A stretch of DNA of 64,000 nt, from IMG/VR virus record IMGVR_UViG_3300048909_000330, positions 598 through 64,597 of that record; one strand, written 5' to 3'. The notes under the pieces were generated by a model, which had not been told where the DNA came from, searched no databases, and was given only the letters and a program-made list of their open reading frames with translations. This DNA comes from a virus. Every line of letters begins with the position of its first letter. Within the stretch, counting starts at the first letter, position 1. Of this stretch, positions 31,104 through 49,236 are shown in pieces. Made by a program: the position numbers and the translations under genes.

Positions 31104-31450
31104 GCATTCTCAATCAAGACGATTCTCCGTTGCGGACATCGCGGCGGTAAATAGACCTGGCCGGGTAGAGTCGTCTTGATTGAGAGCGAATGCGGGATGC
31201 TGACCCGCATGCAAGCGAACCAGAAACTGCAGTCGCGCACTGAACTGGTTGTGTGCCGCAAGCCCGAGATCAGCGCGGGTGCTCTCTGGAATGTCGTGAG
31301 ACATACCGAAGTACCGCCCAAGCGAAGACTTGGGCCTTCATGCAGGCGCATTCAGCGCGGGTAAAGCAAGCCGCAGTTCTCCACGATTGCTGGAGACTAC
31401 CTGATCGGGTGCGGGACTGCTCCGGGAGTGCGCCGCCATGAAGGTGAAAT
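31104..31450 (+). ncRNA. Densely structured non-coding stretch
   Basis: 19-bp stem 31108-31126/31167-31185 plus at least six further hairpins; no convincing ORF. Confidence 0.45.
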
Positions 31451-31546
31451 TAGCGCTGCGCCGGCCGATTGGCCCCTGCGGGTTACGCGAGCGCGCGAAA
31501 GTAGCTTTCCCCTGCTCTCTCCTCGCTCAGGTATTCACTTGAGTTT

Positions 31547-31567
31547 GGCGCTACGGCGCCTTTTTTT
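31547..31567 (+). terminator. Intrinsic terminator
   Basis: GGCGC-TACG-GCGCC followed by T7. Confidence 0.75.
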
Positions 31568-31574
31568 CTTTGCT

Positions 31575-31639
31575 GCGCAGCTAGGGTCATCCCCGAAGAG
31601 CCGACCATCCAACGGCCTGCTGCGCACATTCATTGGATG
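31575..31639 (+). ncRNA. Three-way junction plus pseudoknot leader motif, copy A
   Basis: P1 GCGCAGC/GCTGCGC, UA, P2 GGG/CCC, GAAGA, P3 GCCG/CGGC; loop CATCCAA pairs with TTGGATG. Confidence 0.7.
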
Positions 31640-31655
31640 TTGAGAGGGATCTCAT

Positions 31656-32120
31656 ATGAAAGAAATTCCCATTGGTGAAGGCTTTGTCGCGCTTGTCGAT
31701 GATGCGGACTATGAATTAGTCTCGGCGCATAAATGGTGCATGCACACTATTGGCTATGCCTGTACATACATAGGGACTCCGAAGCAGGAAGGTTTCCTTT
31801 TGCATAGATTCCTGGTGGGTCTTGGCAAAGGAGACAAGAGGTGCGTTGATCACATAAATGGAAACAAACTAGACAATCGAAGGGAAAACCTTCGAATTTG
31901 CTCTCATGCAGAGAACATGAGAAATCGAAAGATCAATAAAAACAATACATCTGGATTCAAGGGAGTTCGGCGCAATCATCGTGGTGAGAAGTGGTGTGCC
32001 CGGATTAAAGTGGATGGGGTGATGGTGGGCCTCGGTTCATATGACACCCGAGAAGCGGCGCATGAGGCATACAAGGCGGCCGCGCTCAAATATCACGGCG
32101 AATTCGCCAGTTTTGGCTGA
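31656..32120 (+). CDS. HNH-AP2 homing endonuclease-like protein
   Basis: VDHINGNKLDNRRENLRICSHAENMRN...SGFKGV...WCARI; visibly AT-richer. Confidence 0.9.
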   Translation: MKEIPIGEGFVALVDDADYELVSAHKWCMHTIGYACTYIGTPKQEGFLLHRFLVGLGKGDKRCVDHINGNKLDNRRENLRICSHAENMRNRKINKNNTSGFKGVRRNHRGEKWCARIKVDGVMVGLGSYDTREAAHEAYKAAALKYHGEFASFG

Positions 32121-32128
32121 GAAAAGAC

Positions 32129-32338
32129 ATGCCGCGCAAGAAAGTGATTCCGGTTGTCGAGGAGCAAAGCGTTTGCAAGACATGCCGCCATGCCTGGTAC
32201 CACCAGGATATCTGGCTGTGCAGGCGTTATCCGCCGACCGCCGTCTATGACTTCGAAGAGCGCGCTGCGTGCAGTTCGTTTCCTGTCGTGCGCGCTGATC
32301 TGACATGCGGTGAGTTTTCGCCGCTGCTGAACAGCTAG
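32129..32338 (+). CDS. Small Cys-rich protein
   Basis: CKTCRH...CRRYPP...CGEF. Confidence 0.7.
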   Translation: MPRKKVIPVVEEQSVCKTCRHAWYHQDIWLCRRYPPTAVYDFEERAACSSFPVVRADLTCGEFSPLLNS

Positions 32339-32465
32339 TAACGCTTTCTTATCAGAATCTTATCGCTGGGTGATAAGGTTTTGAGAAGATTAAAAGTGTC
32401 AATATTTTGTCTTTATTGACCAGAAAGTGGCGCTTTGATATCTCCAATGACCAAATCGGGACCTT

Positions 32466-33647
32466 ATGGACGTTGACGACAATCTGCGTTCATTCGCGAC
32501 GCCGCGGCAACTAGAAGTGCTCGAAGCTGTCGAGAAATACAAGACGCAACGAGCTGCGGCAGAGGCGTTGGGTGTGTCGCATGGCACCGTTGGCGACGTG
32601 ATGTCTGCGCTAAAGAAGCGTGCGGCCAAGATGGGCTACAGCCCGGCGCACAGCATGACCCATGCGGTGCCCGATGGCTTTCTGGCCAAAGGTGTGTCGT
32701 CCTATTTCAATAAGGACGGTGTGCTGAGTGGGCAATGGGTCAAGTCGGCCATCGACCGGGATCGCCAGGAAGCGATCATGCGCGAAGGCTTCGCGGCAAT
32801 GGCGGAAATCCTGCCGCGCGTTAAGCCTGCGCCGGCCCCTGCCAAAGTTGACGCATCGCTGTGCAACGTCTACACGCTGACCGACTGCCACGTCGGAATG
32901 CTTGCAAGCGCGAAAGAAACGCTTAACGCCGATTGGGATCTGAAAATAGCTGAGCGCACGCTTACCGCGGCGTTCTGCCATATGGTCAATGCCGCGCCGC
33001 AAGCGTCCGTTGGCGTGGTGGCGCAACTCGGCGACTGGCTGCATTCGGATGGTTCCGGTGGCCTTTTGCCGATAACGCCCCAACATGGCCACGTCCTGGA
33101 CCAGGATGGTCGATTCTCGAAGATCGTTTCATCGTCCATTCGCATTCTGCGTCGCATCGTAGACTTCGCGCTTGAGCGACACGAAAAGGTTGTCGTGCTG
33201 CTTGCGGAAGGTAATCACGACATGGCGTCGAGCATTTGGCTCCGCGCGATGTTCGCCGCGCTGTACGAGAATGAGCCGCGCGTCCAGGTGATTGATTCGG
33301 CGCTGCCCTACTACGTTTATCAGCATGGCGAGACCATGTTGGCCTTTCACCATGGGCATCTGAAACGTAACGATGACTTGCCGCTTCTGTTCGCAAGCCA
33401 GTTCCCGAAAGTCTGGGGCGCAACGTCCAAACGCTATTGCTCGACAGGCCATCGACACCATGTCGAGGAAAAAGAGCACTCGGGAATGACCGTGATCCAG
33501 CATCCGACGCTCGCCGCTCGAGACGCATATGCAGCTCGCGGCGGATGGCTGTCGGAGCGCAGCGCAACGGCTATCACGTACCACGACAGGTTCGGGCAGG
33601 TCGCGCGCAATACGGTGGTCCCAGAAATGTTTGAGGCGGCAGCATGA
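32466..33647 (+). CDS. HTH plus calcineurin-like metallophosphoesterase
   Basis: TQRAAAEALGVSHGTV HTH; TDCH, GDWLH, GNHD, HHGH, GHRH. Confidence 0.85.
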   Translation: MDVDDNLRSFATPRQLEVLEAVEKYKTQRAAAEALGVSHGTVGDVMSALKKRAAKMGYSPAHSMTHAVPDGFLAKGVSSYFNKDGVLSGQWVKSAIDRDRQEAIMREGFAAMAEILPRVKPAPAPAKVDASLCNVYTLTDCHVGMLASAKETLNADWDLKIAERTLTAAFCHMVNAAPQASVGVVAQLGDWLHSDGSGGLLPITPQHGHVLDQDGRFSKIVSSSIRILRRIVDFALERHEKVVVLLAEGNHDMASSIWLRAMFAALYENEPRVQVIDSALPYYVYQHGETMLAFHHGHLKRNDDLPLLFASQFPKVWGATSKRYCSTGHRHHVEEKEHSGMTVIQHPTLAARDAYAARGGWLSERSATAITYHDRFGQVARNTVVPEMFEAAA

Positions 33648-33850
33648 GCAACGTTATCCGCCCCGCCGTCTCGATTAACGGCGAGTACATCACGCATGGC
33701 GAGGTTGAATCGCTGCGCGCGGCGGTGACGGCTTTCCATAGCGAAATGTCCGACCCGCTAGCCCTTGGCGATGACGAGCATGGTCGGTTCATGGCCAAGC
33801 ACTACCGCCAGCACATGGAGCGCATTCTGCGACTCATGGGCGTCCTGTAA
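33644..33850 (+). CDS. Hypothetical protein
   Basis: Coupled ORF. Confidence 0.65.
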   Translation: MSNVIRPAVSINGEYITHGEVESLRAAVTAFHSEMSDPLALGDDEHGRFMAKHYRQHMERILRLMGVL

Positions 33851-33947
33851 AGACTCCGCAGCTAGACCACGGCTGTTCAGCCGTCCCCAGGTCTAGCCAA
33901 TCCGCGCAATGCGGTGCGCCCGTTCGCGGGCAATAATTCTTGAGTAG

Positions 33948-39508: not shown

Positions 39509-41479
39509 ATGCCACTAGAAGAAGGATCGAACAAAGAGGCGATCAGCAAGAATATTGCGACCGAAATCGACGCAGGGAAAGATCCGAAGCAGGCAGCCGC
39601 CATCGCATACAGCGTCGCCGGCAAGTCTGATGAAGATCCAAGGAAGCCGCTTATCGATGGTTTCGAGGCGATTTGGAAGTCGTGCGAACGTAACTCTCCT
39701 AAAGCCGACTCCGAAAAGGTCAAGGCGGCTGGCACACTGATCGTCGCTGACGGCAACGTCCTGTTCCTGCGCCGCGGCAACGGTGGCGATCACCCGGGCG
39801 AATGGTCGTTTGCCGGCGGAAAGATCGAAGCCGGCGAAACGCCTGAAGAAGCCGCCCGACGCGAGACTCAGGAAGAAACCGGCTACGAGCCGCACAAGCT
39901 GATCGAGCTTGGCAAGTCGGATGACGGATCGGTCGAGTTCACGACGTTCTACAACGAGTCCAGGCCGTTCGATGTCGCACTGAGCGACGAGAGCACAGAA
40001 TTCCTGTGGTCGCCCCTTGGCTCGTGGCCCGAACCCCTGCACCCTGGTTGTCGCTTCGTTCTCGAGTCGGACGCTTTCAAGGCGATCCGCAAAGCGCACA
40101 TGACGGAGACGGACCTCGCGCGAGCGATGGTCGCGGGCGAATATTCATCGCCGCAGTTCTTCGTGAACATGTGGCTGTTCGACATTCGCATCACCGGTAC
40201 GGGCACATCGTACCGATCGAAGGATGAGGAATACGTCTATCGGCCGCCCGAGGAATATCTCAATGATGAATTCCTGGCGCGCTGCAACGGCTTGCCGGTC
40301 ATCGTCGATCATCCCGAGAACTCGAACCTGAATTCGGAAGAGTTCAAGAAGCGTTCTGTCGGCTCGGTCATGTTGCCCTACATCAAGGGCGACGAAGTTT
40401 GGGCAATCGTTCGCATCTACGACGAGGCAACCGCGACCCTGATGTCGCAAGAGCAACTATCAACCTCGCCTAACGTCGTATTCCGCAATCCGAAGTTGGA
40501 AAACACTGTTGTAACCCTCGACAACGGTGAGAAAGGTCTTATTGAGGGAAACCCAAAACTGCTCGACCACATCGCGATCTGCGAGGTTGGCGTGTGGGAC
40601 AAGGGCGGTCCGCCTGCTGGCGTATCTACCACTAACGTTCAGGAACCTGAGATGACTGAAGAAGAGCGTAAGGCCAAGGCGGACGCCGAGGCGAAGCAAG
40701 AACTCGAAGCGAAAGCCAAGGCCGACGCTGAGGAAAAGGCGAAGGCTGATGCCGAAGAGAAGGCTAAGGCAGACTCCGACAAATGGGACAAGCTGATGTC
40801 GGCTGTCGATTCGCTCGCGAAGCGCATGGACTCGGTTGAGGGCAAGAAGGCTGACGCAATGCCGGCTGAGGAATTGGCCGCTGCGGACAAAGCCAAAGCC
40901 GATGCTGAAGCCAAGGAAAAGGAAGAGGCTGAAGCAAAGGCCAAGGCCGATGCGGAGGAGAAAGAGAAGGAAGAGGCTGCGAAGGCCGATTCCGAGAAAT
41001 CAGCCCTCCTCGATCGCGTTGCTCAACTCGAAAAGATGCTGGTGCAGACTGCGCAACTCGCAGTCAAGCCGCTGACCGATGCTGACCACGCTGCGTTCGC
41101 TGACGCTCAAGCGAAGTCCGACAGCATCTATTCGGCGTTTGGCAAGCAGGCTCCGCGCGCCCTCAACGGCGAAGACGTGCTGGCATATCGCAAGCGCCTC
41201 GCCGCCCCGATGAAGTCGCACAGCACGGCGTGGAAGGACGTGGATCTGAGCAATCTCGAGGCGTCGGTCTTCGACATCGCTGAGTCCGCGATTTACGCCG
41301 ACGCAATGGACGCCGCAGTTCGCCCGGTCGGTTCGCCCGAAGGCGGTCTTCGCGCAGTTACCAAGGATATCGGCACAGGCCACCGCGTCACGACGTTCTA
41401 CGGCAAGCCGAGCGACTGGATGGATGACTTCCGTGCTCCGCGCGCCAAAGGCCGAATCAACGTTCAGAAGAGCCATTAA
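39509..41479 (+). CDS. NUDIX hydrolase, DUF2213-like prohead protease and scaffold fusion
   Basis: Intact Nudix box [22 protein letters not shown]; VYRPPEEYL...LPVIVDHP...LLDHIAIC; KADAE-rich scaffold. Confidence 0.88.
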
Positions 41480-42436: not shown

Positions 42437-43456
42437 GTGGCCAATATCGTACCGGCACAAATCCGGGTTAGCCCGCACTACATGATTCCCGAGCTGATCC
42501 TGCAATATCAGCAGGCATCGGGCGCTTTTGACCTGATCGCGACCGGCGATCCGCTCGTCCGTCTCGGCGAAGATGACCTCGCCGTCTACGGAAAGCGACT
42601 GGACGTTCGCACGGAAGTGACGACCAGCCAGTTCGCGCCGAACCAGCTTCCGAGCTGCACGGTGGTGTACAACGAAATCAGCACGCCGACGTACCTGATT
42701 CAAACGCGCGCTGAATACGACCATCACGACACGGCCGCCCTCGGTCGCGTTGGCGTTGCGACGCCGGAAGCACATCGCCTTGCAATGCGTCAAGGCACGT
42801 TCCAGCAACAACGGAACCTGCTTCTGTTCGGCGCGAATCCGCTGAACGGCGAAGGTCTGTTGAACACGAACGGCGCGACGGCAATCAGCCTGCCGCCTGA
42901 CTCGAACGGCAACACGACCATCGTCACGTACGACAACGGTCAGCTCGCCCTGTTCCTGGCTCAGACGCTCGGCTCAATCAAGGTTCGCACGAACCAGATG
43001 GGCATGGGTGTGAAGTTCGCCGTCACGATGCCGCAGCGCGTTCTTGAGTCGATCAGCTACGACGTGGTTCAGTTGACCCAGTTCCAACGCCAAGGCGCTG
43101 GTTCGAAGTCGGCCCGCGGTCTCGTGGATGACGTGCTCGAGTGGAACGAGGACGACATCACGTGGGGCGCTGACGATACGTTAATCGGCAAGGGCGCTGG
43201 TGGCACGGACATGATCGTCATCTCCATGCCGGAAGTGAAAAAGCCGAAGGGCGGCAAGATCAACACGAACGCATTCGCCGAACTGACGCCGGGCCTTCAG
43301 GCTTGCGCGCTGCAGCTCGTCGACCGTGCGGCTCCGACTGAAATCACCGCTCCGCTGCCGAAGGGTGCGGTTGATGTCGTGTCGGAACTGCGCTCGACGT
43401 CGGGTTGGTCGATCCGTCCGGAAGCGATCACGCTTCTGAGCGTCCAGTACCAGTAA
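42437..43456 (+). CDS. Major capsid protein (DUF2184-like)
   Basis: 339 aa; position; VSPHYMIPELILQYQQASGAF. Confidence 0.85.
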   Translation: MANIVPAQIRVSPHYMIPELILQYQQASGAFDLIATGDPLVRLGEDDLAVYGKRLDVRTEVTTSQFAPNQLPSCTVVYNEISTPTYLIQTRAEYDHHDTAALGRVGVATPEAHRLAMRQGTFQQQRNLLLFGANPLNGEGLLNTNGATAISLPPDSNGNTTIVTYDNGQLALFLAQTLGSIKVRTNQMGMGVKFAVTMPQRVLESISYDVVQLTQFQRQGAGSKSARGLVDDVLEWNEDDITWGADDTLIGKGAGGTDMIVISMPEVKKPKGGKINTNAFAELTPGLQACALQLVDRAAPTEITAPLPKGAVDVVSELRSTSGWSIRPEAITLLSVQYQ

Positions 43457-43465
43457 TCGCTTAGC

Positions 43466-43532
43466 CATGCGGATAGGTTGCGCAACTGACAAGCACGTCC
43501 CCTGTCGTGTTTCCGCATGCTTCTACACAGGG
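43466..43532 (+). ncRNA. Three-way junction plus pseudoknot leader motif, copy C
   Basis: P1 CATGCGGA/TCCGCATG, UA, P2 GGTT/AACT, GACAA, P3 GCACG/CGTGT; loop CCCTGT pairs with ACAGGG. Confidence 0.65.
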
Positions 43533-43554
43533 ATTCTTCTAACAGGGAACTGTC

Positions 43555-44064
43555 ATGCCTTTGTATATCGCGAATTGCTCCAAGTTTAACTACGAATTGC
43601 ACTACTGGGTCGAGAACTCCAAGAAACCGGTGGTGACCAAGATCCGACCCGGCGGCCAGGAAAGCGTCTATCCGCAGGGGAATCGTCTCGATCACGAGCG
43701 CATCGTTGAGCAGCACAAGATTTACGGGCTGACGCCAGTCTCCGAGATTGACCGAAGCAAGCAATTCGTCGGACAGTGCTACCAGTTCGATACACCGATC
43801 CCGCACGATCGTCTTTTCACGACGATGGAGCGCAACGACGACGTTCTGTATGAACAGGCGCTCGAGCGACGCAAAGAAGCCGCAGTGGCAACGGACGATA
43901 TTGTCCGCAGGGCTGCGCAGGATGCCGGGATGAAGGTCGACAACATCGAGACCGAAATTCAGGAAATCGAGCAGAAAGGCGTTGAGCCGACTGTGCACGA
44001 AGTCATTACTGTTGGCGAACAGCGGAAGCCCGATGGTCGCCGCGGTCGCCGAAGCCGCAGCTAA
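43555..44064 (+). CDS. Virion-associated hypothetical protein
   Basis: MPLYIANCSKF...; follows the MCP. Confidence 0.75.
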   Translation: MPLYIANCSKFNYELHYWVENSKKPVVTKIRPGGQESVYPQGNRLDHERIVEQHKIYGLTPVSEIDRSKQFVGQCYQFDTPIPHDRLFTTMERNDDVLYEQALERRKEAAVATDDIVRRAAQDAGMKVDNIETEIQEIEQKGVEPTVHEVITVGEQRKPDGRRGRRSRS

Positions 44065-46138: not shown

Positions 46139-46160
46139 GCCCGCCTTGAGCGGGCTTTTT
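46139..46160 (+). terminator. Intrinsic terminator
   Basis: GCCCGC-CTTGA-GCGGGC-TTTTT, nearly identical to the one at 41500. Confidence 0.75.
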
Positions 46161-46176: not shown

Positions 46177-46545
46177 ATGCCCCAAGGCCCGACGCAAGCG
46201 AATGTCGCTCGCAATCCCTCGAATGTTTCTGTGCCGATGACCACAGACGCGGCCGGCAATCTGCTCACTGGCAACGGATCGAGCAGCCATCTGAACGTCA
46301 CGGCCGCGACGGTTATCAAAACCGGCCCCGGCCGCGTCTGCAAGTTGGTCTTCAACAATGCCTCGACGACTGCGCCCGCTGTCTATGACTTCGCCGCGGC
46401 GACCGGTTTCGCTGCCGCAAATCTAGTCTGGCAAGGCGCGACTGCGACCGCAGCTCAGACCGTCGTGCCACTCGATTTCCCCTGCTCCGTTGGCATCGTT
46501 GTTGTTCCCGGCACTGGCGGCATCGTTTCCGTCTCGTTCGATTAA
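46177..46545 (+). CDS. Small beta-rich virion protein
   Basis: LNVTAATVIKTGPGRVCKLV...DFPCSVGIVVVPGTG. Confidence 0.7.
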   Translation: MPQGPTQANVARNPSNVSVPMTTDAAGNLLTGNGSSSHLNVTAATVIKTGPGRVCKLVFNNASTTAPAVYDFAAATGFAAANLVWQGATATAAQTVVPLDFPCSVGIVVVPGTGGIVSVSFD

Positions 46546-46567
46546 GCATCCCCGCCACCCTTCCCGG

Positions 46568-46590
46568 CCCCGCCTTCGCGCGGGGCTTTG
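46568..46590 (+). terminator. Probable terminator
   Basis: GCCCCGC-CTTCGC-GCGGGGC-TTT. Confidence 0.6.
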
Positions 46591-48399: not shown

Positions 48400-48463
48400 G
48401 CCGCAGATAGAGTCGCCCTCGAAAACCGGCCCCTTACCGGCTTCTGCGGCACCTCCATTAAGG
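48400..48463 (+). ncRNA. Three-way junction plus pseudoknot leader motif, copy B
   Basis: P1 GCCGCAGA/TCTGCGGC, UA, P2 GAG/CTC, GAAAA, P3 CCGG/CCGG; loop CCTTA pairs with TAAGG. Confidence 0.7.
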
Positions 48464-48481
48464 ACTGATTGAAGGAATCAG

Positions 48482-49120
48482 ATGAAAATCGATGATAAGC
48501 GTCATCTCGCCTTACCCATTGTGACGGAGACGATCGCAAAGGAAGTGGGCGGCAAGGGTGTGACGGAAGAAGTAGTGAAGCTTTGGGCTTTCCACACTCC
48601 GGTCAGCCGCGAGATTTTCGAACAGAACTACCGCGTAATCTCCGCGACCAAATCGGCGCTTGCCAGTAAAGGCGCGCATTACCTGATGCAGTCTGCACCG
48701 CGCATTGCTGCGTTGACTCTGCGCGATGAGGGTCGAAAAGACGCGATTGCGCGAGGAATGGTCGACAAGGAAGGTCACGTTAATAACGACGAGACGCTTT
48801 CCCTGCTAGAAGAACTGAAGCGGCTGACCATGATCCTCTGTCCCGGCCAGCACGGCTGGGACATGCTCCCCGTAGACATGGCGATTTCGGCAGGCAAGAT
48901 CGATGAAGAAGATTGGGGGGAGGCGCTGTCGGGCATCTGTTTTTTTACATGCAACTATGCGATGGCCCGGAAAGCCGATCGCGCGACGACAGCGGACGCA
49001 TACGCTGGTCTGCTCGGTGCCTCGATTACGTCATCGACACCTACGGAGTTCGGCGCCTCTTTGCCGAACTTGACGCCGGTCGCACATACGAAACCGGCAC
49101 CGTCCTCGATTCCATCCTGA
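48482..49120 (+). CDS. Tail assembly chaperone
   Basis: Between tube and tape measure. Confidence 0.75.
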   Translation: MKIDDKRHLALPIVTETIAKEVGGKGVTEEVVKLWAFHTPVSREIFEQNYRVISATKSALASKGAHYLMQSAPRIAALTLRDEGRKDAIARGMVDKEGHVNNDETLSLLEELKRLTMILCPGQHGWDMLPVDMAISAGKIDEEDWGEALSGICFFTCNYAMARKADRATTADAYAGLLGASITSSTPTEFGASLPNLTPVAHTKPAPSSIPS

Positions 49121-49236
49121 ACTGGATGACTGGCGAAGGGTTCGCCGAAACATTCGATCAGTACGACTCGCCCTATCGTTCGGCGCAGGAGTACAAGAAT
49201 CGATACCTGATAGAAGCTTTGAAAAATGGCCGCTAA
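48940..49236 (+). CDS. Possible -1 frameshift extension of the chaperone, or a small separate ORF
   Basis: T TTT TTT at 48940-48946; the -1 frame is open to 49236 and ends LDSILNWMTGEGF...YKNRY. Confidence 0.45.
   Translation, partial: FFYMQLCDGPESRSRDDSGRIRWSARCLDYVIDTYGVRRLFAELDAGRTYETGTVLDSILNWMTGEGFAETFDQYDSPYRSAQEYKNRYLIEALKNGR

Follow-up and report, generated by a model that had tools for sequence, protein, structure and literature searches.

int-alpA RNAs in the structural operon of a Burkholderiaceae prophage as candidate translational leaders

The stretch of DNA studied here, 64,000 nucleotides (nt) long and referred to in the following as the window, covers positions 598 to 64,597 of the IMG/VR virus record IMGVR_UViG_3300048909_000330, a provirus of 69.6 kb whose relatives are Caballeronia and Paraburkholderia prophages. 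It contains three intergenic copies, A, C and B, of one structured RNA, and these belong to a catalogued Rfam family, int-alpA (RF02996). Each copy forms a three-way junction with a pseudoknot between the loop of its third helix and the tail behind the junction, an arrangement confirmed far beyond chance. Comparison with the wider family suggests that int-alpA may be a portable cis-acting leader, in which this loop would choose between an internal decoy and the Shine-Dalgarno sequence of the next gene and so gate its translation; we put the probability of this at about one half. The family itself was already catalogued, and what is new is the occurrence of int-alpA members in the structural operon of Burkholderiaceae prophages.

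The three sites had been noticed in an earlier reading of the window, made from the letters alone (the sequence-only reading). The layout that it gave, P1-UA-P2-GA[AC][AG]A-P3-Y(Y)-P1', the pseudoknots and the covarying helices are all present in the sequence. It took the motif for an unrecognised one, which does not hold, as all three copies lie above the gathering threshold of RF02996; it also left open whether the motif corresponds to a phage-associated Rfam motif such as Proteo-phage-1, and the family is int-alpA, not Proteo-phage-1.

Three members of a catalogued RNA family

Against a gathering threshold of 35.8 bits, RF02996 scores 38.0 bits on copy A and 51.0 bits on copy B in scans of the whole window, and 43.6 bits on copy C when positions 43440-43570 are scanned alone; in larger Rfam scans copy C is dropped by the speed filters. 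At E-values up to 10 this family is the sole Rfam match at the three sites, with no ribozyme, riboswitch or tRNA family beside it. Its consensus runs P1(8)-UA-P2-GAAAA-P3-CU-P1', with a tail ending in AgGG opposite a CCuU loop, and the copies share with it the P1 of 8 base pairs (bp), the UA, P2, the GAAAA-type joint between P2 and P3 (J2/3), a P3 with a CCU-rich loop, the YU and the AGG-type pairing tail. The Rfam model ends at the pairing segment of the tail (S4); the P4 hairpin and a second target of the P3 loop (L3) on the Shine-Dalgarno sequence fall outside it. The copies and their parts are as follows.

31574..31639, + strand: int-alpA copy A (Rfam RF02996, 38.0 bits; structure descriptor; RNAfold, which reproduces P1, P2 and P3). 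P1 31574-81/31619-26; P2 31584-86/31592-94 (GGG/CCC); P3 31600-03/31613-16 (GCCG/CGGC); joints UA 31582-83, GAAGA 31595-99 and CU 31617-18; linker 31627-32; L3 31604-12, ACCAUCCAA; pseudoknot of 7 bp, CAUCCAA (31606-12) with S4 UUGGAUG (31633-39); ATG of the HNH-AP2 gene at 31656.
31641..31658, + strand: P4 hairpin region of copy A, UGAGA/UCUCA (31641-45/31650-54), with the ATG at 31656.
43466..43532, + strand: int-alpA copy C, beginning 9 nt past the stop codon of the major capsid gene (phrog_6671/264). P1 43466-73/43512-19; P2 43476-79/43484-87 (GGUU/AACU); P3 43493-97/43506-10 (GCACG/CGUGU); joints UA, GACAA 43488-92 and, between P3 and P1' (J3/1), U; linker 43520-26; L3 43498-505; pseudoknot of 6 bp, CCCUGU with S4 ACAGGG (43527-32); ATG at 43555.
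43542..43557, + strand: second L3 target of copy C, ACAGGG 43542-47, overlapping the Shine-Dalgarno sequence; P4 ACAG/CUGU (43542-45/43550-53).
48400..48463, + strand: int-alpA copy B, beginning 9 nt past the stop codon of a 147-amino-acid (aa) gene 3' of the tail sheath gene. P1 48400-07/48443-50; P2 48410-12/48418-20 (GAG/CUC); P3 48426-29/48437-40 (CCGG/CCGG); joints UA, GAAAA 48421-25 and CU; linker 48451-58; L3 48430-36; pseudoknot of 5 bp, CCUUA with S4 UAAGG (48459-63); ATG at 48482.
48465..48484, + strand: P4 hairpin of copy B, CUGAUU/AAUCAG (48465-70/48476-81), whose loop is the Shine-Dalgarno sequence GAAGG (48471-75).

A structure descriptor (P1 of 7 bp with at most one mismatch, UA, P2, GANNA, P3, 1-3 nt, P1') matches these three sites and no others in the 64-kb window, both strands searched and all matches on the + strand; on Markov-shuffled windows it gave 1 match in 40, or 0.025 expected per window. 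Similarly, a covariance model run over the window with filters off returned 63.3, 55.0 and 42.3 bits for the three copies, which belonged to its training set, and 8.2 bits for the next best site. Model R1, with which related loci were searched, was built from a 25-sequence alignment with a structure given by hand, used instead of a MAFFT alignment of the three copies alone, in which P3 was misaligned.

Fold and pseudoknot across the family

RF02996 has matches in 13 of the 151 sampled genomes of the class, and one exact P2 core recurs in 117 IMG/VR stretches, with several copies in some elements. The family sample used below comprises 156 distinct copies from related phage loci, class genomes and IMG/VR. 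A covariance-model search for homologues had been proposed with the sequence-only reading, for which their lack would have been a refutation, and more than 150 distinct ones were found.

Each helix varies in sequence among copies A, B and C without losing its pairing, and the same holds on the larger scale. Among 96 distinct sequences, in alignments fitted to the model, 95.0% of the stem cells are paired, compared with 66.4% in shuffles, double changes occur in 15 of 17 pairs, and the covariation score is 0.641 (0.147 in shuffles, with none of 500 reaching the observed value). P1 and P3 contain many G-U pairs. The unpaired junction is far more uniform: UA (J1/2) is found in 155 of the 156 copies, J2/3 begins with GA in nearly all and reads GAAAA in 69, most of the others being GA-N3 forms, and J3/1 is CU in 82 and UU in 55. 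In total only about 9 unpaired junction nucleotides are conserved. The linker after P1' is pyrimidine-rich and poor in G (6%).

For the pseudoknot we relied on alignment-free permutation tests, because the model-fitted alignment puts loop and tail out of register. At least 5 contiguous L3:S4 pairs are possible in 85% of the sequences, but in only 32% when L3 is swapped between sequences. S4 begins 6-8 nt after P1' in copies A, B and C, and 6-10 nt after it across the family.

The downstream start codon and a second site for L3

A start codon with a Shine-Dalgarno sequence, assigned heuristically, lies downstream of 147 of the 156 copies, and in 116 of these 147 it is found 29-37 nt after P1'. 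Likewise, the pseudoknot ends 16 (A), 18 (B) and 22 (C) nt before the ATG in the window, just as the sequence-only reading had it, beside the Shine-Dalgarno sequence. On the other side, P1 follows the upstream stop codon at 6-11 nt in 87 of 135 cases and hardly ever lies closer than 6 nt; the mode is 8 nt and the distribution has a long tail. In 20 of 99 diverse copies there is no upstream open reading frame (ORF) within 70 nt. The start-codon distance is thus tight and the upstream-stop distance loose, from which it follows that the fixed partner of the motif is the downstream gene.

The stretch from S4 to the start codon usually forms the P4 hairpin, with a mean minimum free energy of -3.76 kcal/mol as against -1.19 kcal/mol in shuffles, and in 68 of 118 cases P4 encloses the Shine-Dalgarno sequence with its stem and exposes it in its loop. 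Copy B provides a clean case, CUGAUU-GAAGG-AAUCAG-AUG; in copy A the P4 loop GGGA is part of the Shine-Dalgarno sequence.

L3 is complementary not only to S4 but also to the Shine-Dalgarno region, which repeats S4. Statistics on this second site were made with one representative for each of 87 L3 classes, 72% of which allow at least 5 contiguous pairs between L3 and the stretch from S4 to the start codon; control windows of equal length reach this in 8% (coding region) and 9% (upstream flank) of cases. The mean number of contiguous pairs is 5.11, compared with 4.24 +/- 0.09 after permutation, and the effect persists in the 24 classes whose L3 does not resemble an anti-Shine-Dalgarno sequence (4.67 versus 3.84 +/- 0.17). 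The second site stops 5-8 nt short of the start codon, that is, at the position of the Shine-Dalgarno sequence. Indeed, loop, S4 and Shine-Dalgarno flank change in concert across many lineages, as in the S4/flank pairs UGAUGA/UGAUGAG, ACGAGU/ACGAG, CGGUG/CGGUG, GUCGCU/GUCGCC and ACAGGG/ACAGGG. The two alternative duplexes are close in energy, with family means of -7.3 kcal/mol for L3 with S4 and -6.1 kcal/mol for L3 with the Shine-Dalgarno site (a difference of about 1.2); they are equal in copy C (both -10.2 kcal/mol) and nearly so in copy B (-4.7 and -4.3 kcal/mol).

Genes around the motif

The family owes its name to its setting in prophages and islands, where it neighbours integrase genes, alpA genes or both. 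The window copies do not conform to this context, as they belong to the late structural operon of a Burkholderiaceae prophage and are at least 31 kb from the integrase, which is located at the far left end of the provirus (record positions 31-504); this provirus has no match to Phage_AlpA. Genomic context is not part of the RF02996 model. In the family sample, P4-type integrases account for 13 of 65 upstream genes, which are otherwise mutually unrelated. The downstream genes are likewise mutually unrelated and mostly without a Pfam match; among those that can be named, HNH or homing endonucleases are the most frequent class, while Tad3, Dam, Rha and a portal protein occur once each. Such a set of unrelated downstream genes suits an expression device of general use better than a sensor tied to one pathway. 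int-alpA is a candidate structured RNA from the survey of Weinberg et al. 2017 (PMC5737381), the main text of which does not discuss it, and a literature search for int-alpA or RF02996 yielded no functional study.

Copies C and B at the capsid and tail tube junctions

Copy C separates the major capsid gene from a gene for a 169-aa protein (ATG 43555, phrog_6737). It is kept behind the capsid gene in about 30 relatives, and its orthologues in the related genomes G001 and G003 score 46.1 and 48.5 bits with RF02996. The 147-aa gene in front of copy B is, by its position behind the sheath gene (phrog_205), the tail tube gene; copy B, kept at this junction in about 27 relatives, is followed by a gene for a 212-aa protein (ATG 48482) in the position of a tail chaperone, before a tape-measure-like gene with an SLT domain. 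On 91 related loci model R1 found 64 copies, all on the gene strand and nearly all at the capsid and tube junctions, in relatives with a capsid identity of roughly 65% or more.

Extra copies were seen at other late-operon junctions of related prophages (L016:11936-12003, L026:15922-15985, L009:7837-7900), and copy number and position of int-alpA therefore vary within the phage group. One type of extra copy has the loop UUUGACCG together with a matching S4, CGGUCA, and Shine-Dalgarno flank, GUCAAG.

In more distant relatives, with a capsid identity of about 58-60%, the spacer between the capsid gene and the next gene carries a different conserved three-way-junction RNA of ~63 nt, with a covarying P1 of ~8 bp, P2 AGCACG/CGUGCU, a joint UCAAACUGUAG and P3 GGACG[ACUGUAAG]CGUCC.

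L078:6413-6510: different spacer RNA; the same spacer is present in L048, L055, L057, L063, L065, L069, L077, L081 and L082.

Rfam gives no match to this RNA at E-values up to 10, and it may therefore be an uncatalogued motif in the slot of copy C.

Further features of the late operon were noted in passing. Immediately ahead of the tape-measure-like gene, a 107-aa ORF (48913-49236) overlaps the 212-aa gene in a different frame, and the arrangement of window positions 48482-49236 is that usual for a frameshifted tail-chaperone pair. A 122-aa ORF (46177-46545) without PHROG match, just 5' of the tail sheath gene, lies between two strong terminator-like hairpins (46139-46155 and 46566-46587), a moron-like layout within the tail operon. 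Finally, the head module encodes an unusual fusion, a 656-aa late protein (39509-41479) with a NUDIX-like N-terminal region and weak matches to head-maturation-protease and portal-like families (phrog_6216, 1198, 530).

Copy A and the HNH cassette

Copy A precedes a gene for an HNH endonuclease (PHROG HNH; Pfam HNH_3 and AP2) and has a hairpin of its own on the other side.

31547..31570, + strand: hairpin resembling an intrinsic terminator, GGCGC-UACG-GCGCC with U7 behind it, 3 nt 5' of copy A.

None of five complete related proviruses, which carry only one or two copies at the capsid and/or tube junctions, has an orthologue of copy A; the HNH gene is missing from three of them and has homologues elsewhere, without the motif, in the other two. 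Because there is no counterpart at this position in relatives, we regard copy A and the HNH gene as a lineage-specific insertion, and judging from the sequence comparison the copy appears to have arrived as a cassette together with the HNH-AP2 endonuclease gene. A non-coding segment of 70 nt at window positions 31440-31509 (GAAGGUGAAAUUAGCG...CGCGAAAGUAGCUUUC) matches positions 7925-7856 of the related provirus L242 at 83%. There the counterpart directly precedes a gene; here the terminator-like hairpin, copy A and the HNH cassette come next, and positions 31510-33940 of the window are without counterpart in that relative. The segment may be a late leader or regulatory site.

A proposed mechanism

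Taken as part of the late polycistronic mRNA, int-alpA would influence how translation is initiated on the gene directly behind it. L3, usually an anti-Shine-Dalgarno look-alike, would normally be parked on S4, its internal decoy, because S4 is transcribed first, lies closer and pairs on average more strongly; the Shine-Dalgarno sequence would then be free in the P4 loop and the gene translated. If L3 shifted to the P4 loop instead, a loop-loop kiss would mask the Shine-Dalgarno sequence and translation would fall. We infer this competition, and its effect on ribosome binding, from the dual complementarity of L3. The conserved junction presumably sets or senses the balance, be it as a fixed set point or through a host factor, an ion or temperature. 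Copies C and B, which stand behind genes of high-copy products (capsid and tail tube), could in this way uncouple and set the output of the lower-copy next genes. The sequence-only reading had likewise proposed a reusable cis-regulatory module acting on translation, and the comparative data favour this; its further proposal that the module tunes late-gene stoichiometry fits copies C and B, but is not general, as most relatives follow integrases or precede accessory or HNH genes.

Several observations weigh against this reading. An L3 lineage with UCACUCA (9 members) has a 7-bp pseudoknot and almost no complementarity to its GGAGG Shine-Dalgarno sequence, and L3 of copy A, which pairs with S4 over 7 bp, finds only a 4-bp match (GGAU) in the Shine-Dalgarno region (-8.6 versus -4.2 kcal/mol); the pseudoknot thus has a value apart from masking. 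Permuted loops, too, reach at least 5 Shine-Dalgarno pairs in 36% of cases, and since most L3 loops are CCU-rich, their complementarity to the Shine-Dalgarno sequence is partly generic. The similarity between S4 and the Shine-Dalgarno region could in part stem from local duplication. To these come the fitting of the stem-count alignments to the model and the heuristic choice of start codons mentioned above.

Similar uses of RNA structure are known from other systems. In phage T4, structures on read-through transcripts mask the ribosome-binding sites of homing-endonuclease and late genes (I-TevI/II/III, segB, mobE; soc, e, 25, 26) (PMC2988022). Common to both are cis-acting structures on long polycistronic phage transcripts that mask, or in int-alpA would mask, the Shine-Dalgarno sequence of the next gene, as well as the association with HNH or homing endonucleases. 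In T4, however, the structures are plain hairpins, and relief comes from a late promoter that the hairpin contains, whereas int-alpA is without evident internal promoter and holds its anti-Shine-Dalgarno sequence in a hairpin loop within a conserved three-way junction that has an internal decoy; the two are not homologous. On IncI1 and IncB/O plasmids (PK-repZ, PK-repBA), a pseudoknot between a loop and the flank of the ribosome-binding site is needed for translation of repZ/repA, according to PMC8053102, which cites Asano & Mizobuchi 1998 and Praszkier & Pittard 2002 (its refs 49-51). As described there, the hairpin loop pairs just 5' of the ribosome-binding site and decides on downstream translation, with an upstream frame ending nearby, as in int-alpA; the plasmid pseudoknot is, by contrast, under the control of an antisense RNA and of leader-peptide translation and has no three-way junction. 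For int-alpA no antisense RNA is known, and its loop also matches the Shine-Dalgarno sequence; again the systems are not homologous.

Alternative explanations

The motif could instead serve RNA stability or act as a roadblock, the pseudoknot-locked junction being a compact, mechanically resistant fold whose nearness to the Shine-Dalgarno sequence is secondary. It would then shield the upstream message (capsid, tube, integrase) from 3'-exonucleases or the downstream message from 5'-scanning RNase E, and it might also stop Rho or sliding ribosomes in the untranslated spacer. The common stop-to-P1 distance of 6-11 nt places P1 just outside the footprint of the terminating ribosome, and in distant relatives without the motif the capsid spacer consists of GC hairpins, terminator-like stems or the different three-way-junction RNA, so that the capsid junction generally carries a structured element. 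Moreover, the topology is that of flaviviral class 1a exonuclease-resistant RNAs (xrRNAs), which combine a P1-P2-P3 junction with an L3-S4 pseudoknot just past P1 (2-7 bp there, 4-8 bp in int-alpA), followed by P4 (PMC8571300). The retention of the pseudoknot in the UCACUCA lineage without complementarity to the Shine-Dalgarno sequence also agrees with a structural role. We nevertheless find this explanation doubtful, as it accounts neither for the covariation of the Shine-Dalgarno region with L3 nor for the tight start-codon spacing of 29-37 nt, and as no gene that copy A could protect stands directly in front of it. A 5'-3' exonuclease like Xrn1 or RNase J is not known to occur in most Proteobacteria. 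A counterpart of the 5' pseudoknot PK1 of xrRNAs was not found, the 5' flank of int-alpA covarying neither with J2/3 nor with J3/1; the conserved cytosine of J2/3 is also missing (J2/3 is GA-N3), the junction sequences differ, and the hosts are without Xrn1, so that the resemblance is topological only. That int-alpA is a true bacterial or phage counterpart of the xrRNA type, a directional roadblock to RNase E, exonucleases, Rho and ribosomes whose loop also gates the ribosome-binding site, is a long shot in our judgement; if it were so, the RNA would insulate a plugged-in gene and be a portable 'expression socket' that mobile elements put before any cargo gene.

A riboswitch-like or protein-operated sensor, with a junction pocket that binds a small molecule, an ion or a conserved host protein, stabilises the pseudoknot and switches the ribosome-binding site, would be a specific version of the translational model with the trigger named. 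Near-invariant junction nucleotides among helices that all vary are what a tertiary pocket or a surface for recognition typically shows, the two near-isoenergetic states of L3 suit a switch, and an order of anti-Shine-Dalgarno, Shine-Dalgarno and anti-anti-Shine-Dalgarno elements is the usual expression platform of translational riboswitches. We still hold such a sensor to be unlikely: the conserved unpaired nucleotides are few, a metabolite tied to one pathway is improbable given downstream genes without common function, the carriers (myovirus-like prophages and islands with P4-type integrases) are too diverse for a shared element-encoded protein, and this provirus has no AlpA homologue. A small RNA released from the message and acting in trans through its single-stranded anti-Shine-Dalgarno-like loop would agree with the Rfam type 'Gene; sRNA', but is very unlikely in view of the fixed position on the coding strand between a stop and the next start codon, the covariation of L3 with partners in cis, the lack of a promoter signal in the 5' flank, where nothing beyond the stop codon was detected just 5' of P1, and the lack of a terminator-grade U-tract after P1 in the three copies. 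An intrinsic terminator was itself discarded as a candidate, since the tails that follow P1 (CAUUCAUU in A, ACCUCCAU in B and CUUCUACA in C) make poor U-tracts and B and C lie mid-operon. Branched pseudoknotted folds in the intergenic spacers of long operons, and a P1-UA-P2 that loosely resembles an acceptor stem, U8/A9 and D arm, bring to mind a cut in the polycistronic message between genes, made by a self-cleaving ribozyme or directed by a tRNA-like processing signal. This is highly improbable, as no Rfam ribozyme or tRNA family matches, the core of about 9 conserved junction nucleotides is too small for known self-cleaving classes and the 3' tail past P1 shows no NCCA-like conservation; the self-cleaving element considered in the sequence-only reading accordingly finds no support. 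There is hardly any case for a recoding stimulator at the upstream stop codon, with the structure ~8 nt downstream, or for a folded single-stranded DNA recombination site of neighbouring integrases. Many copies do stand directly behind integrase genes, and the 8 nt most often found between the stop codon and P1 recall the geometry of recoding stimulators; yet no in-frame extension past the stop is conserved, the invariant UAG occurs in all three frames, the upstream genes are mutually unrelated, and the integrase here is 31 kb away. Common G-U pairs, strict gene-strand orientation and Shine-Dalgarno coupling point to RNA and not to a DNA site. Binding of CsrA was also considered: S4 and the Shine-Dalgarno sequence of the three window copies resemble GGA-in-loop sites, but this is not family-wide, and because many relatives have an S4 without GGA, CsrA sites are not a general explanation.

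Conclusions

int-alpA is widespread, and the comparative data give the proposed leader a concrete design, consisting of an anti-Shine-Dalgarno loop, an internal decoy and a Shine-Dalgarno sequence presented in a loop. The family stands ahead of unrelated genes. If translational gating by this loop is correct, it would give phages and islands a module for translational control of general use, and would bear on how accessory, homing-endonuclease and anti-defence genes are expressed inside foreign operons. It would also offer a compact part for synthetic biology.

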